In this document: positions 31,954 to 38,343 of the stretch, piece by piece
How positions within the stretch are numbered: position 1 is the stretch's first letter
Layout of the letters: each line of letters opens with the position of its first letter
From: an uncultured Alphaproteobacteria bacterium
GTDB lineage: Bacteria > Pseudomonadota > Alphaproteobacteria > Rs-D84
Assembly: GCA_905236005.1 (NCBI GenBank)
Contig: CAJONJ010000044.1
Location: 1 to 51,781 of the forward strand
Reading direction: 5' to 3'
Length of the DNA: 51,781 nucleotides
Position numbers and translations under genes: made by a program
The notes under the pieces: generated by a model
Seen by the model: only the letters and a program-made list of their open reading frames with translations
What the model was told of the DNA's origin: nothing
The model's database searches: none

Positions 31954-32310
31954 ATGAAAAAAATAGTGAATAAAATAAGTTTTGTTTTGATTTCTGCTAT
32001 GACGTCGGTATCGGCATTGGCGGCTGATAATACAGGTTCGGCAATTCAAGATTGTGCGTTCGTAGACAAATTGCATCAGGTGTTTCGTTTATTACAAGCT
32101 TTTGCGTTTATTGGTGCTGCGTTCTTTATTGCTGGTTGGGCATGGGATTTTATTGCCGGTGGTAAAGCAGAAGTTAAAACTATTAAAGAAAAAGGAACTG
32201 GTTTGTTAGTAGGGTTCCTGTTATTGTTTATGGTTGGGGTGATATTAGGCTTTGTATCCAAAACGGTAAGCAATAATTATGATATAGATTGTGGTCTGGC
32301 AAATTGGTAA
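31954..32310 (+). CDS. VirB2/TrbC-like type IV secretion pilin candidate
   Basis: 118 aa: signal peptide ending SALA/AD, then two hydrophobic helices (AFAFIGAAFFIAGWAWDFIA and GLLVGFLLLFMVGVILGFV) separated by a charged loop GGKAEVKTIKEKG. The topology matches T4SS pilins; there is no sequence-level proof. Confidence 0.4.
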   Translation: MKKIVNKISFVLISAMTSVSALAADNTGSAIQDCAFVDKLHQVFRLLQAFAFIGAAFFIAGWAWDFIAGGKAEVKTIKEKGTGLLVGFLLLFMVGVILGFVSKTVSNNYDIDCGLANW

Positions 32311-32313
32311 AAT

Positions 32314-32342
32314 AAAAAAACCGTCATCTGGACGGTTTTTTT
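32314..32342. terminator. Bidirectional rho-independent terminator
   Basis: aaaaaaa ccgtc atctg gacgg ttttttt between convergent genes. Confidence 0.8.
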
Positions 32343-32356
32343 AATGTGTTATTGTG

Positions 32357-33316
32357 TTACAAAGATTTTTTGTATTCTGTTGACCATAAATATTTGCGAG
32401 CATTTTCAATTCTTCTGACGATTTCTTTGAAATCCGTTTGTGTTAAAAAGTCTTCTGGGTTTTTGTTACCCTCTGTGTGCTTTTGAAATTTGCTGCGTGC
32501 TATTTGAGCACTTTCAGCACACTGTCTGGCTATTCTATCACGTGTTGAATATTCATGTTGTTCAGATACATAATTTACAATATCTTGTAACATATAATAT
32601 ACATATATCCATTGTTCTGGCATTAAATGTGTTGTTGGTGAGTTTGTAATATTGTATTTGTTTTTCAAATTTTGTATATCTGTTGTTGCAAACAGTTCGC
32701 ACCATATAACATTTAATAAATAATCAAAATTTTCTGTTTTGTTTTTTTGTTTCAGCTGCTCTGCTAATAAATTATCAACGTTTTCTGGTGTTGTTTCTTG
32801 TTTCAAACGGTCTGCGACCATGGCATAAAAGATTCTGGTAACATTTTGTATTTTTTTAGATGTCCGATACAGGTTGATTTCGTTTGCATAATTGATTAAA
32901 TCTGTCAAAGATGCATTTGGAAATAAAAAGTACGCCTGAGAAAATTCGGTGTTGTAAAATTTTTGAAAATAAAATTCGCAACCTAAACGGGATATTTGTT
33001 GATCTAGATTGTGTTCTGAATATCCAGTGTCTATACTGTTTAATGTTTTGTTGTTTTGGTTGCAGATAGTTTTTACGTGAACCGGATTTGACATCAGGTA
33101 TTTGTAACCAGGAATTGTTTTTACAATATTGTCTTTTAATTTGGTGTGAAAATAATCAACGATTATCAGTCGGTCTTGTTCCAGTATGTCGGAATGTATT
33201 GCGGCGATGTCAGACCATTTCCAAAATTCAATTTGGTCTTTGTTGAAATGTTTTGCCTGATTTAATAATTCTAATTTTTCTTTGGCATCTTCTAAATTTA
33301 AATCAATCAGATTCAT
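32357..33316 (-). CDS. Unknown 319-aa cytoplasmic helical protein, downstream partner of the RHH gene
   Basis: Intact ORF 5 nt downstream of the RHH gene on the same strand; no signal peptide or TM; no motif I can assign (an RSKFQKH stretch fits Rx4-6H only loosely). Confidence 0.6.
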   Translation of the reverse strand: MNLIDLNLEDAKEKLELLNQAKHFNKDQIEFWKWSDIAAIHSDILEQDRLIIVDYFHTKLKDNIVKTIPGYKYLMSNPVHVKTICNQNNKTLNSIDTGYSEHNLDQQISRLGCEFYFQKFYNTEFSQAYFLFPNASLTDLINYANEINLYRTSKKIQNVTRIFYAMVADRLKQETTPENVDNLLAEQLKQKNKTENFDYLLNVIWCELFATTDIQNLKNKYNITNSPTTHLMPEQWIYVYYMLQDIVNYVSEQHEYSTRDRIARQCAESAQIARSKFQKHTEGNKNPEDFLTQTDFKEIVRRIENARKYLWSTEYKKSL

Positions 33317-33321
33317 GTTGT

Positions 33322-33552
33322 TTAACCTTTTTTTGATTCGTCAACGTTGGCTAATGAAAATAATACAGATGATATTAACGATTGATAGGGGACATGTTGT
33401 GTTTCTGCTAATTCTTTAATTTTATCTAAAACTGGTTTTGGGATACGCATGTTTATAACGCAATCGGATTTATTGAAAGCACGATAAGCAGCATATTCTC
33501 GTAACAAAGATTCTATATTCATAACGAATAATTGTTGCATCACGTTCGGCAT
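33322..33552 (-). CDS. CopG/BrnA-like ribbon-helix-helix protein (antitoxin-like regulator)
   Basis: C-terminal VINMRIPKPVLDKIKELAETQHVPYQSLISSVLFSLA matches the beta-strand/helix/helix pattern and the PYQSLI signature of BrnA/CopG-type antitoxins; strong AGGAGA RBS. Confidence 0.7.
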   Translation of the reverse strand: MPNVMQQLFVMNIESLLREYAAYRAFNKSDCVINMRIPKPVLDKIKELAETQHVPYQSLISSVLFSLANVDESKKG

Positions 33553-33570
33553 ATACTATCTCCTATACAT

Positions 33571-33642
33571 CAGCCATTACAAATGACTATAACATTGTAT
33601 TTACATTTGTCAATACATTTGTGTATATGTTTGTGATGGCTG
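33571..33642. promoter_or_regulatory. Candidate operator: 13-bp inverted repeat enclosing iterated TACATTTGT motifs
   Basis: cagccattacaaa (33571-33583) versus tttgtgatggctg (33630-33642), one mismatch as an inverted repeat. TACATTTGT at 33602-33610 and 33614-33622, TATGTTTGT at 33626-33634 (12-nt period), inverted core at 33578-33585. Confidence 0.45.
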
Positions 33643-33711
33643 GAATATAGGCGTTTGTATGGATTGGTGTGTGGTAATGTTTTTTTATGGTTTTGATTTT
33701 TTATAGTTGCG

Positions 33712-33720
33712 TGTTAAAAT
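33712..33720 (+). promoter_or_regulatory. Extended -10-like element TGTTAAAAT upstream of tolB
   Basis: TGnTAAAAT 42 nt upstream of the tolB start. Confidence 0.4.
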
Positions 33721-33761
33721 TGTTACATTATCATAGTTGGGTAAAAGGAAAGGATTTATAG

Positions 33762-35078
33762 ATGAAAAAATTTCTTTGTGCGTTAGCATTTGTTGTTTTT
33801 GGTTTGTTCCCTGCTGTGGCAGAATTGCATGTTGATATTGTTGCGGGTGGAACAGAACCTATTGCGATAGCTGTTCAAAAATTTGAAACAATCGGTAAAG
33901 TTTCCGCTGCTGATGCAAAAATGTTACGGGAAGTTGTTGAAAATGATTTAAAAAGGACAGGGTTGTTCAGAATTGTAAATCATGATGCTTTTCCGCAGTT
34001 TGTTAAAATGAATGATATGCCTAATTTTAAAAGTTGGGCAGCCATTAAAACTCAGGCACTGGTTCAAGCCAGTGTAAAACCAGATGGCAAAGATAGTTAT
34101 AAATTGGAATTTTATTTGTGGGATGTTGCGGGCAAAGAACAAATAGAAGCACAAAGTTTAATTGCATCTAAGAAATCTGCAAGACGGTTAGCTCATATTA
34201 TGGCTGATGCTATTTATGAAAGATTAACCGGAGAAACCGGTTATTTTGATACGCAGATTATATTTATTGCTGAAACAGGTTCAGTAGATAGCAGGGTAAA
34301 ACGTATGGCTATTATGGATCAGGACGGTTTTGGTATGCGGTATTTGTCTGATAAAAATACTTTTGTAATGTCACCACATTTTTCACCAAATATGGCAACT
34401 GTTGTGTTTTTGTCTTTTCGTAATGATGACCCTATGGTGTGGGTTTTGGATTTAGATACAGGTGACCAAACTAAATTAGGTAATTTTGGTGGAATGAATT
34501 TTGCACCACGTTTTTCACCTGATGGAAACAAAGTAGCTTTGTCTTTGGTCAAAGATGGTATAACAAACATTTATGAATACAATATGGTTACCAAGACTTT
34601 GAAGCAATTGACATTTGGAAATCATATAGATACCAGTCCGTCTTATTCGCCAGATGGTAAATATCTTGCTTTTAATTCAGACAGAACAGGTTCTCAGCAG
34701 ATTCATGTTTTAGATTTGGCCAATGGGACACAAAAACGTATAACTTTTGGAGCAGGGCGATATGCAACCCCAGCTTGGTCGCCAGACGGACAATTTATTG
34801 CGTTTACTAAGATAGCAGAGGATACATTTTATATTGGTGTTATGAATCCGCAGGGACGTCATGAAAAAATTCTGGCTGGTGGTTGGTATATGGAAGCACC
34901 TTCTTGGGCACCTGGTTCCAGACGATTGGTATATTATGAAACAGAGAAAGCTGATAATGACAAAGATCGTATCAGCCATATTCGCAGTGTAGATATCACA
35001 GGACGTAATGTTTATGATATTGATTTACCTGATGGGGTAAATGGAACAGAACCAACATGGTCACCCAAGTTGCCGTAA
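33762..35078 (+). CDS. tolB: Tol-Pal system beta-propeller protein TolB
   Basis: Signal peptide plus repeated propeller blades (SPDGNKVALS, SPDGKYLAFNSDRTGSQQIHVLDL, SPDGQFIAFT). Confidence 0.93.
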   Translation: MKKFLCALAFVVFGLFPAVAELHVDIVAGGTEPIAIAVQKFETIGKVSAADAKMLREVVENDLKRTGLFRIVNHDAFPQFVKMNDMPNFKSWAAIKTQALVQASVKPDGKDSYKLEFYLWDVAGKEQIEAQSLIASKKSARRLAHIMADAIYERLTGETGYFDTQIIFIAETGSVDSRVKRMAIMDQDGFGMRYLSDKNTFVMSPHFSPNMATVVFLSFRNDDPMVWVLDLDTGDQTKLGNFGGMNFAPRFSPDGNKVALSLVKDGITNIYEYNMVTKTLKQLTFGNHIDTSPSYSPDGKYLAFNSDRTGSQQIHVLDLANGTQKRITFGAGRYATPAWSPDGQFIAFTKIAEDTFYIGVMNPQGRHEKILAGGWYMEAPSWAPGSRRLVYYETEKADNDKDRISHIRSVDITGRNVYDIDLPDGVNGTEPTWSPKLP

Positions 35079-35079
35079 A

Positions 35080-35502
35080 ATGAAAAAGATTATTTGTAGT
35101 ATTTTATTTTGTTTTGTGTGCGGGATTGCGTTTGCAACACCAGTGATGGTAACTAGGATTGTTGATGGTGATACTTTCAAAGCGACAGTATTGTTGGCTG
35201 ATGGTATAGAGGTTATGTCTGTCGGTGTACGTTTGCGTAATGTTGATACACCTGAGATACATGGTCAGTGTGATGATGAAATTATGCGTGCGGAAATGGC
35301 AAAACGAAGATTGTCAGAATTGATTCCTGTGGGGTCAGTGATTGAAATTACCAATGTGAAAAATGATAAATATCCTGGTCGTATAGATGCAAATGTTTTT
35401 GACGAACAAAATCGTGATGTTGGTCTAGTTCTTATTCAAGAAGGTCTTGGACGTCCATATTCAGGTGGCAAAAGACAATCTTGGTGTGATGGAATATACT
35501 GA
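35080..35502 (+). CDS. Secreted staphylococcal-nuclease-like (thermonuclease) protein
   Basis: Start trimmed to MKKIICSILFCFVCGIAFA; SNase motifs VTRIVDGDTFKA and VRLRNVDTPE, DKYPGRIDANV. Confidence 0.8.
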   Translation: MKKIICSILFCFVCGIAFATPVMVTRIVDGDTFKATVLLADGIEVMSVGVRLRNVDTPEIHGQCDDEIMRAEMAKRRLSELIPVGSVIEITNVKNDKYPGRIDANVFDEQNRDVGLVLIQEGLGRPYSGGKRQSWCDGIY

Positions 35503-36722: not shown

Positions 36723-37561
36723 TATTTTTCAGATAATATTCTAAGGGTTGTTTTTTTGGTTATATAAACAGCAAATATCACTATGACAACAGCTAAAATG
36801 AATAAAGCTAGCCATGAACCAGCAGATAAATTTAACGTTGCTAATAATCCAATACGTGCAGAATGTGCGGTTGATAATATCAATAATAATACCGGAATTG
36901 CTATAATAAATCCGATTAAGCATGCCAGACTGCTGATTCTTGCAATAATGATTTGCATTTGTTTAGTTATGAAAGAATCTGTGGCACCAACTTGGTTTAA
37001 TATTTCCAATTCGTGTTTGTGTAACATGGCTATGTTTCGTGAAATGTATGATATACATACACCAATAGAAGCCAATATTATCAATAAAACAAAACAAGTT
37101 ATGCTGACTAATTTCCATCCTGCCGCAACAGAGGGGTTTAATGCAGATGCATGTGTTAATACTTTTGCCTTTGTTCCAATCTGTTCTTTTAATGATGTTA
37201 TATCAGTAGCATTTTTAACACGAATTTCAAACATCTGTGGTAAATAATTGGTTATTTTTGCACCACCAGAAATCCATGGTTGCATCATACGTTCCATTTC
37301 TGATTTTGATATTTCGTTTATGGATTCTATTTTGTCATTGTTATTATTGAAAATTTTCTTTATCGCTGAGGTGTTATCAAGATTCATGATTTGGACAGTT
37401 GCATATCTGTCCCATTGAGTATTCCATTGTATTACACCATTGCTGATAGATAATGCAATACCAAAAGCCAACACAGATAAAAATGTCAAAATAGAGATTA
37501 CAATCGTCATAAATATTGATTGTTCACGAACCAAAGAAAATACAAGTTTATTTTGTTTCAT
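36722..37561 (-). CDS. ftsX: Cell division ABC transporter permease FtsX
   Basis: 279-aa ORF with one N-terminal TM, a periplasmic loop and three C-terminal TMs; its start overlaps the ftsE stop by 1 nt. Confidence 0.85.
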   Translation of the reverse strand: MKQNKLVFSLVREQSIFMTIVISILTFLSVLAFGIALSISNGVIQWNTQWDRYATVQIMNLDNTSAIKKIFNNNNDKIESINEISKSEMERMMQPWISGGAKITNYLPQMFEIRVKNATDITSLKEQIGTKAKVLTHASALNPSVAAGWKLVSITCFVLLIILASIGVCISYISRNIAMLHKHELEILNQVGATDSFITKQMQIIIARISSLACLIGFIIAIPVLLLILSTAHSARIGLLATLNLSAGSWLALFILAVVIVIFAVYITKKTTLRILSEK

Positions 37562-38343
37562 TATGCGTTTCCAATATCTTCAAATTGTTTTGACAATTGT
37601 GTAAAATAATTTTGTGCCTGTGGTTTTGGACCCTTCCATTTACGAGCCGAATCATTTTCTGGGGTAGTTCCAGAAAAAGCAACATGATGGTTTTCAACTG
37701 TAATTATTGGAAAATGGTATGTTTCTAATAATTTTTTATTATGTGTTGCTAAAATGATTGTTGTACCAAAAACCTTATTCATTTGAATAAATAATTCCAT
37801 CAATCTTGAAGCATTTTCGTCATCTAGATTTCCAGTTGGTTCGTCAGCTAATAATATAGCTGGTTGTATAATAATCGCACGAGCCACCGAAACACGCTGT
37901 TGTTGTCCCCCACTTAATTCCAAAGGGTATACGTCAGCATATTTACCCAAACCAACCCATTCAAGAGTTTTTGTTACCAGTTTTTTTATTTTATCATTTG
38001 GAAATCCACGGACCCGTAATGGCAAAGCAACATTTTCAAAAACGGTCATGTGTGAAATCAAAGAATATTCTTGAAACACTATTGCCATTTTATGTCTTAA
38101 GGCGGAAATGTCGTTTCTGGACAATGAATCACATTCTTGTCCGAATAATTTAATTTGACCACTGGCAGGTTTGTGTAACTGATATATTAAACGCAACAAA
38201 GTTGTTTTGCCAGCCCCAGATGCCCCAGTCAAAAAATAAAAAGCACCGCCACTGATGTTAAAAGACACATCTGATAACACATCGTGTCCGTTTTCGTAAT
38301 TTGCGGATACATTTGCAAAAGATATTGTTGTTTTACCTTCCAT
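37561..38343 (-). CDS. ftsE: Cell division ATP-binding protein FtsE (with short C-terminal extension)
   Basis: Walker A GASGAGKTTLL, signature LSGGQQQRV, Walker B LLADEPTGNLD; precedes ftsX. Confidence 0.92.
   Translation of the reverse strand: MEGKTTISFANVSANYENGHDVLSDVSFNISGGAFYFLTGASGAGKTTLLRLIYQLHKPASGQIKLFGQECDSLSRNDISALRHKMAIVFQEYSLISHMTVFENVALPLRVRGFPNDKIKKLVTKTLEWVGLGKYADVYPLELSGGQQQRVSVARAIIIQPAILLADEPTGNLDDENASRLMELFIQMNKVFGTTIILATHNKKLLETYHFPIITVENHHVAFSGTTPENDSARKWKGPKPQAQNYFTQLSKQFEDIGNA

Follow-up and report, generated by a model that had tools for sequence, protein, structure and literature searches.

Background

A 51,781-nucleotide (nt) stretch of DNA from an uncultured Alphaproteobacteria bacterium (contig CAJONJ010000044.1 of assembly GCA_905236005.1; "the window" below always means this whole stretch) contains a small ribbon-helix-helix (RHH) gene that is followed almost immediately by a gene for a protein of 319 amino acids (aa). 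The locus raises the question of whether these two genes form a dedicated toxin-antitoxin (TA) or defence pair, and what kind of protein the larger one is. A preliminary description, based on the letters of the sequence, regarded the large protein as unrecognisable and suggested either an antitoxin-first TA module with a novel toxin, or an RHH-regulated gene of the abortive-infection or defence type.

We identify the large protein, by profile comparison, as a remote relative of DinD. The RHH gene belongs to the fixed part of the chromosome of its lineage, and the large gene is present behind it in some species and missing from others. The reading that we favour, and which we consider probable while leaving substantial room for others, is a core and probably self-repressing RHH regulator that carries an accessory, conflict-type DinD-like gene on its 3' flank. 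A dedicated TA pair is unlikely; a defence role for the DinD-like gene is possible, to judge from the company its relatives keep. The two genes are as follows, with all positions counted in the window.

33552..33322, minus strand: open reading frame (ORF) of 76 aa, the CopG-type RHH gene
33316..32357, minus strand: ORF of 319 aa, the large gene, beginning 5 nt past the RHH stop codon

Identity of the 319-aa protein

Searched alone, the 319-aa protein matches nothing in Pfam, NCBIfam, PADLOC, PHROGs or the PDB sequences. Its family is small, with 8 clusters recovered by a single sequence and 36 by profile among 5.8 billion proteins, and 38 representatives in a search of 1.84 billion; the members are all about 290-320 aa long. 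We therefore identified the protein through its relatives, by scanning 34 family members one by one against family models. Ten of the 34 match the NCBIfam model PRK11525 (NF008573), "DNA damage-inducible protein D" (best match 1.5e-12, and full length in members P0040 and P0043), 23 match the PADLOC model PDC-S13 (PDLC04919), and 12 match phrog_8036. Because Escherichia coli DinD itself matches PDC-S13 (2.4e-121) and phrog_8036 (4.7e-107) strongly, these three models describe one and the same family. The DinD equivalog cutoff of PRK11525, 242 bits, is reached by none of the family members, the best of which scores 47.4 bits.

Comparison of profiles by hhalign extends this relationship to the branch that contains the window protein. 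When the window's clades were used (I and II, with the DinD-matching clade removed), the alignment to a five-sequence DinD profile reached a probability of 95.4% (E 1.7e-8) over 249 columns, spanning query positions 7-297 and DinD positions 1-262. With all clades included, the values were 98.2%, E 4.3e-14 and about 250 columns. The link appears only with such deeper profiles: a profile of eight close orthologs alone found nothing when aligned to the single E. coli DinD sequence. A clade-mate that is 51% identical to the window protein (P0009) matches PDC-S13 over its full length (8.3e-10).

The positions that are invariant in the large-protein family coincide with those of DinD. In the alignment, D105, R110 and C113 correspond to DinD D80, R85 and C88; Q127, Y129 and F130 correspond to Q106, Y108 and F109; R274 corresponds to R240; and the pair P287-E288 corresponds to P251-E252. 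Conserved residues of the N-terminal domain are W32, S35, H80, D105, R110, C113, Q127, Y129 and F130. Two domains can be distinguished.

32924..33253, minus strand: N-terminal alpha/beta domain, residues ~22-131, with the order b-b-a...a-b-b-a in the AlphaFold2 (AF2) model; aligns to DinD residues 1-110
32375..32908, minus strand: all-helical domain at the C-terminus, residues ~137-314, with homology to the corresponding region of DinD

In E. coli DinD, residues 1-110 constitute a Pfam Bro-N domain (PF02498), and it is there that the N-terminal domain of the large protein aligns; the Bro-N model itself matches neither the window protein nor any of the 34 members scanned. The N-terminus of E. 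coli DinD also resembles the N-terminal domains of many actinophage "antirepressors". A first AF2 model of the 319-aa protein, built on eight sequences, was mediocre (predicted local distance difference test, pLDDT, 76), and a Foldseek search with it found nothing. The model built on 34 sequences is confident, with pLDDT 88.6 and a predicted template-modelling score (pTM) of 0.82. Matches in BFVD are weak only (E 0.14-1.6), and include KilA-N, antirepressor and AntA/AntB proteins.

On these alignments, we place the 319-aa protein in the DinD superfamily as a full-length but highly divergent member; it is neither a new fold class nor a HEPN protein, and the partner that had been called unrecognisable thus has a family. 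The preliminary description had pointed to the stretch RSKFQKH as a loose fit to a HEPN motif. The stretch exists, but it is not a HEPN motif, because its H is not conserved (it is Y in close relatives and other residues in clade II) and its R aligns with DinD R240; HEPN also found no match by sequence or fold. Nucleotidyltransferase, Abi and kinase folds, which had been named as further candidates, were rejected likewise, with no support for any of them from sequence or fold.

As a separate observation, the window's DinD-like protein contains a 17-residue insertion (LKQETTPENVDNLLAEQ) in its C-terminal domain, at residues ~171-187 (window 32756-32806). This insertion is absent from all 33 other aligned family members, and the confidence of the model is lower there.

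A fixed RHH gene and an optional large gene

Fourteen loci were found through the large protein. Because these had been selected by the very gene whose distribution was at issue, a further 79 loci were retrieved by using TolB alone (58-90% identity), tolB being the gene divergent to the RHH gene. Homologs of the large gene that occurred mostly without a small regulator beside them would have refuted the pair proposed in the preliminary description, but the survey gave the opposite result: the large gene is always directly behind an RHH gene, in 25 of 25 loci (14 found via the large protein and 11 via TolB), and its ORF is intact in all 25. The two genes are separated by 2-5 nt in most loci but by 17-37 nt in five; a further five have overlapping genes when the first ATG is used as the start.

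The converse is not true. Wherever a TolB-selected locus extends far enough upstream, the RHH gene adjoins tolB, even at a TolB identity of only 58%. The large gene, however, is present in only 11 of 44 TolB-selected loci and cleanly absent from 33, a ratio that is indicative only, as the count includes near-duplicate contigs. In the empty loci, the RHH stop codon is followed 20-45 nt later by a terminator hairpin and the convergent gene small118, and tblastn detects no remnant of the large gene in any of the 33. A TolB tree of 52 loci requires no fewer than five changes between presence and absence (gain or loss). Cluster counts tell the same story, with 346 for the RHH protein versus 36 for the large protein.

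Occupancy leaves no trace on the RHH gene. Occupied and empty loci cannot be told apart by the RHH protein, its promoter or the seven repeat units described below, and variation in the RHH sequence reflects host phylogeny rather than occupancy. The large protein falls into three sequence clades, which track host clades.

Two distant loci, L078 and L070, carry other ORFs in the same orientation, 13-14 nt past the RHH stop codon (152 aa and at least 99 aa, respectively; coordinates 254-712 in L078 and 249-547 in L070, relative to the start of the stop-to-stop frame that holds the RHH gene). We considered whether these are degenerate DinD-like genes and rejected the idea, as hhalign shows both to be unrelated to the family. 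It may be, therefore, that the 3' flank of the RHH gene can take up more than one kind of cargo gene. In one further locus (L072, TolB 67% identical), the RHH gene is not divergent from tolB, but is located downstream of the SNase-like gene and convergent with it; the otherwise fixed tolB-RHH order has therefore been rearranged at least once.

The RHH protein

The preliminary description had reported the 76-aa ORF with its AGGAGA ribosome-binding site and a CopG-type RHH bearing the PYQSLI signature, as well as the 319-aa ORF 5 nt past its stop codon, and all of these are present. The RHH protein matches the Pfam family PF12441, CopG_antitoxin, over residues 25-64 (34.7 bits, E 3.2e-8; the gathering score is 28). 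The RHH itself occupies roughly residues 31-68, including the (V)PYQSLI signature, and is preceded by an N-terminal segment of ~30 residues. PF12441 is found in all 120 listed members of the 346 clusters of homologs (at 90% identity). The gene is real, as there are 21-30 synonymous versus 0-4 nonsynonymous codon differences between loci.

More specific assignments are weaker. Some databases name orthologs "BrnA antitoxin family protein", but the score of the RHH protein against the NCBIfam BrnA equivalog NF047399 is 20.9 bits, below the cutoff of 60. Matches to Arc-like families are weak (Pfam Arc, E 0.0034, 17.6 bits with a threshold of 20.4; phrog_582 "Arc-like repressor", E 0.014), and no similarity to solved RHH antitoxins is detectable. 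In tblastn searches of phage and plasmid collections, neither the RHH protein nor the large protein found a match.

The N-terminal segment (residues 1-30, window 33463-33552) is as conserved as the RHH itself. The first ~45 residues show weak matches, at the level of chance (E 0.1), to the RRM domain of human RBM7, which fall on its RNP2/beta1-alpha1-beta2 part (LFVMNIE... versus LFVGNLE...) and are probably coincidental.

Unequal rates of evolution

The two genes differ greatly in conservation. Between the window and the six closest loci with a full neighbourhood, in which TolB is 87-91% identical, the RHH protein is 96-100% identical, the FBA aldolase 72-77%, and the large protein 33-49%. 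When all pairs of loci are considered, a TolB identity of 99% corresponds to 100% for the RHH protein and 88% for the large protein; TolB at 93-94% corresponds to 54-61% for the large protein; and TolB at 70-77% corresponds to 71-91% for the RHH protein and 17-31% for the large protein. The large protein is thus the least conserved in the neighbourhood, being 17-61% identical where TolB is 72-94% identical, and the RHH protein is the most conserved, above TolB. Ratios of nonsynonymous to synonymous change (dN/dS, by the Nei-Gojobori method) are 0.007-0.04 for the RHH gene, 0.045-0.06 for tolB and 0.12-0.37 for the large gene.

Some of the divergence appears to have been imported. In one nearly identical pair of loci (L013 and L014), the large gene has a dS of 0.39, compared with 0.014 for tolB and 0 for the RHH gene; its differences lie in blocks, at codons ~56-90, 117-165 and 266-308. 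We read this pattern as the signature of imported segments, that is, of a recombination mosaic. Because the clades of the large protein track host clades, the history of the gene fits ancestral presence, followed by very fast divergence, local recombination and repeated loss.

Promoter and putative operator of the operon

The following control elements precede the RHH gene or lie within its 3' end.

33635..33552, minus strand: seven tandem iteron-like units of 12 nt, of the form nACAnnnnGTAwn, recognized by their register across loci; presumed RHH operator array
33613..33586, minus strand: predicted sigma-70-type promoter, with TTGACA, a 16-nt spacer and the extended -10 element TG-n-TATAGT (11 of 12 consensus matches)
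33564-33559, minus strand: AGGAGA ribosome-binding site of the RHH gene, 6 nt before its ATG, as read from the sequence
Inside the 3' end of the RHH gene, minus strand: AAAGG Shine-Dalgarno-like sequence of the 319-aa gene

The predicted promoter is the best promoter match in the region, is kept in all loci, and is the only strong one for the operon, which has a single terminator. It is embedded within the iteron array, which spans from upstream of the -35 element down to the RHH start codon. About 45 nt around the promoter are nearly invariant, although the remainder of the spacer between tolB and the RHH gene cannot be aligned. The 12-nt register is kept in 44 loci; the outer units retain the AC...GTA positions, and their centres vary. 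The region had earlier been described as carrying operator-like repeats, and it proves more regular than that description implied. The array is visible only through the register shared across loci, and a run of Tandem Repeats Finder (TRF) did not report it.

RHH repressors typically bind short tandem repeats that overlap promoters, and do so cooperatively. For this reason we infer that the RHH protein probably represses its own promoter. The double motif ACAAWTGT-N4-ACAAWTGT has seven matches in the window versus 1.75 expected, and four of the seven lie in this control region. A LexA box, whether of the E. coli, alphaproteobacterial or Gram-positive type, was not found in 33552-33762.

The sole other good match to the double motif in the window is palindromic (CAAATTGTTTTGACAATTGT) and is located at 37581-37600, within a 260-aa ORF (37561-38343) and near its 3' end. 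It may be a second RHH site or a chance match.

Neighbouring genes and host lineage

Three further features delimit the operon. The terminator and the genes on both sides had been noted in the preliminary description and are present.

33762-35078, plus strand: tolB, divergent from the RHH gene, on its upstream side
31954-32310, plus strand: ORF of 118 aa with a signal peptide and membrane segments, convergent with the 319-aa gene
32313-32343, both strands: bidirectional intrinsic terminator with a 13-bp stem, an A-run before it and a T-run after it

The terminator hairpin is the sole terminator-like site in 32200-33800 and is common to the RHH/319-aa operon and the convergent ORF. No BrnT-like gene adjoins the RHH gene, as the preliminary description had remarked; its neighbours are the divergent tolB and either the DinD-like gene or the terminator.

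The gene order in all related contigs is PlsC, SNase-like, TolB, RHH (with or without the large gene), small118, lipoprotein and FBA aldolase, then EF-P, PPase and DnaN. The GC content of the gene pair, 0.33, is the same as that of its surroundings. The locus is thus part of the core chromosome, and because GC content is normal and synteny strict, we rejected the idea that the pair arrived as a mobile island. Relatives of the locus occur in metagenome-assembled genomes named "Alphaproteobacteria bacterium" (UBA1185, and RGIG2753 from goat omasum) and in bovine rumen, gut and human gut metagenomes. The hosts are a lineage of uncultured low-GC Alphaproteobacteria from gut and rumen.

Two neighbours have peculiarities of their own. 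In the region 33762-35502, tolB is located outside any tolQRA-tolB-pal cluster and is followed by an SNase-like lipoprotein gene, not by pal; the same holds in every related locus whose neighbouring genes were examined. It has its own conserved promoter-like region at about 33693-33735. The convergent 118-aa ORF also evolves fast (39-65% identity where TolB is 70-91% identical) and was found in 47 of 49 loci with enough downstream sequence, the two in which it was not detected being L058 and L072.

Proposed role and alternatives

In the arrangement that we favour, the fixed part is the RHH gene, a vertically inherited core gene of the lineage that is divergent to tolB. RHH dimers would bind the seven iterons cooperatively and so repress their own near-consensus promoter, in the usual manner of RHH repressors, and the protein may have a wider role as a core regulator. 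The optional part is the 319-aa gene, an accessory passenger that exactly fills the interval from the RHH stop codon to the shared terminator. Since it has this position and no promoter of its own, the level at which it is expressed would depend on the RHH-controlled promoter and on translational coupling.

In E. coli, DinD strips post-synaptic filaments of RecA (Uranga et al. 2011, according to the passages citing it in PMC4849656 and PMC4129442). As the invariant positions of DinD are kept, the DinD-like protein may act in the same manner, by noncatalytic binding of a nucleoprotein target. Its role would be in conflict with phages or other mobile DNA, either anti-phage or anti-recombination, rather than in housekeeping. 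We favour conflict because of the hypervariability of the gene, its mosaic structure, its repeated loss, the defence-island and prophage contexts of its relatives, and the PADLOC listing of the family. Full-length DinD genes are situated between repressor and integrase in Streptococcus phages and satellites, one stands beside an antirepressor gene in a Shigella phage, and another is on a Zymomonas plasmid next to TA genes. DinD domains are also embedded in Type I restriction-modification (R-M) loci, and a coding sequence with a dinD domain has been reported between hsd genes (PMC9881135). The earlier suggestion of an RHH-regulated, defence-type gene is to this extent compatible with the PDC-S13 membership, patchiness, hypervariability and mosaic of the large gene.

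A side observation concerns the models themselves. E. coli DinD (L008:3761-4582) matches the first ~267 of 717 positions of the PADLOC "Type I specificity subunit" model (3e-114), and also the N-terminus of PDC-S05. The former match implies either DinD-HsdS fusions or a contaminated model, and agrees with the coding sequence in PMC9881135.

Several points weigh against the idea of an accessory conflict gene behind a core regulator. The window protein itself has no match to the DinD, PDC-S13 or Bro-N models, and the link is made through profiles and clade-mates. A Foldseek search with the pLDDT 88.6 model gave no significant neighbour in the PDB or BFVD, and there was no DinD structure to compare with. 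PADLOC lists PDC-S13 among 145 untested "phage defence candidates", so that its status is that of a candidate only; literature searches on DinD in defence, TA or RHH contexts, and on "PDC-S13", found nothing specific. Gene-wide dN/dS stays below 1 and so does not show positive selection, and relaxed constraint would also account for rapid divergence and recurrent loss. The closest occupied and empty loci are 90% identical in TolB, so that the patchiness is between species and clades, with no strain-level polymorphism in the sample; to this may be added the indicative nature of the occupancy ratio noted above.

A more ambitious version of the same arrangement, which we think unlikely, makes the RHH gene a lineage-wide "sentinel" whose 3' flank is a dedicated slot for accessory conflict genes. 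Departure of the RHH protein from its seven-iteron operator, as might follow phage infection or DNA damage, would release these genes jointly. The cargo would be the hypervariable DinD-like gene in many species, and the unrelated ORFs in L078 and L070. If this were true, the locus would represent a previously undescribed kind of defence hotspot, anchored by a regulator, and would imply a natural anti-phage role for DinD-family proteins.

We hold it to be just as improbable that the large gene is simply the DinD orthologue of the lineage, which would trim RecA filaments after repair under RHH rather than LexA control and would have no part in conflict with phages. Such a housekeeping regulator of recombination would agree with the full-length homology and conserved invariant positions, with a chromosomal, syntenic and vertically inherited gene whose clades track those of the hosts, with dN/dS below 1, and with a control region that lacks a LexA box and so needs some other regulator. 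It is difficult to reconcile with the loss of the gene from most sampled species of the lineage. Moreover, the fastest-evolving gene nearby, a mosaic of imported segments, would be an unusual partner for the highly conserved RecA, and the relatives of the gene are enriched in prophages, satellites and R-M loci.

A genuine type II TA pair has lower odds still. In this scheme, the DinD-like protein would be a toxin that blocks, for example, RecA or the nucleoid, the RHH protein would neutralise it and repress the operon, and the RHH genes of empty loci would be orphan antitoxins. The layout is what such a pair would have: two adjacent co-oriented genes in one predicted operon, with the RHH gene upstream in all 25 cases, a tight coupling in most loci, one strong promoter laden with putative operators, one terminator and probable autoregulation. 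The RHH protein belongs to CopG_antitoxin, its orthologs are called BrnA in some databases, and its additional ~30 N-terminal residues could contact a partner. In E. coli, the mutant dinD allele pcsA68 causes toxicity in the cold. Against this scheme, one expects a dedicated antitoxin to be found together with its toxin, and an orphan antitoxin to decay. The RHH gene lacks its partner in most TolB-selected loci and yet is under the same extreme purifying selection there, with promoter and iterons unchanged. Nor does the RHH sequence show partner-associated changes, although the partner diverges to 17-26% identity, which is hard to reconcile with a specific neutralising interface. In addition, the large protein shows neither the fold nor the family of a known toxin, the RHH protein falls short of the BrnA cutoff, lacks a BrnT and resembles no solved RHH antitoxin, and the pair is not mobile. 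The antitoxin-first module of the preliminary description accordingly fits poorly with an RHH gene that is fixed in the core and exceeds TolB in conservation.

The least probable alternative is a decaying, domesticated prophage remnant, in which an old antirepressor-like or DinD-like gene was trapped behind a core gene and now drifts to loss without a current function: repeated clean losses, raised dN/dS with very fast divergence, and an N-terminal domain common to phage antirepressors would suit it, but every carrier locus with sufficient sequence has an intact ORF of about 290-320 aa, dN/dS of 0.12-0.37 still indicates constraint, the invariant motif positions are common to all clades and to DinD, the coupling to the RHH stop codon is kept tight in most loci (with gaps of up to 37 nt in a few), and the AF2 model is confident.

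A core RHH regulator with an accessory, conflict-type DinD-like gene thus remains the reading that we prefer, and it bears on two matters. DinD is an old SOS gene product of obscure physiological role whose family has recently been listed as a phage-defence candidate. The locus provides a natural experiment, as it holds a branch of DinD that current models do not detect and that evolves several-fold faster than its neighbours, recombines and is repeatedly lost. Conflict genes typically behave in this way, which is a reason to test DinD-like proteins for anti-phage or anti-recombination activity. The locus is also a warning for annotation. Because the RHH gene labelled "BrnA antitoxin" is here a stand-alone core gene more conserved than TolB, membership in PF12441 is by itself no evidence of a TA system.

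Comparison with known systems

The closest known relative of the large protein is DinD (PRK11525/NF008573; PDC-S13; phrog_8036), to which it is homologous over essentially its whole length (95-98% by hhalign over about 250 columns). The two share a size of about 275-320 aa, an N-terminal domain of Bro-N type joined to a helical C-terminal domain, and the invariant elements D..L(S/T)R.AC, Q.YF, the C-domain R and PE. Relatives are found in prophages, satellites and R-M loci, and PADLOC counts the family among its defence candidates. The proteins studied here differ in that the best of them scores only about 47 bits where the equivalog cutoff is 242. The large gene also lacks a LexA box and is predicted to be co-transcribed behind an RHH gene, an arrangement absent from the five canonical or phage DinD loci that were inspected. 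Finally, the large protein is confined to one chromosomal slot of one lineage, where it is hypervariable.

BrnA/BrnT systems resemble the locus through the 76-aa protein, which is in PF12441, has a C-terminal RHH with the (V)PYQSLI signature and has orthologs named BrnA in some sources. They differ from it in gene order, which is reversed, and in the presence of BrnT; the RHH protein scores below the BrnA cutoff, has no detectable similarity to solved antitoxins, and is the product of a fixed core gene that mostly stands alone.

In layout, the locus recalls the arc-ant genes of the phage P22 immI region, where the gene for the small RHH repressor Arc comes first, that for the ~300-aa antirepressor Ant comes second, and Arc represses their common promoter. 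Here, too, an RHH gene is closely followed by one for a protein of ~300 aa, from a superfamily whose N-terminal domain also occurs in phage antirepressors, a strong predicted promoter is overlapped by operator-like repeats, and the RHH protein has weak Arc-like matches. The two differ in that the Arc match is below threshold, neither an ANT/KilAC nor an AntA domain is present in the large protein, the locus is chromosomal rather than prophage-borne, and the RHH gene exists independently of the large gene. We regard the resemblance to arc-ant as an analogy of layout and not as membership in the same family.

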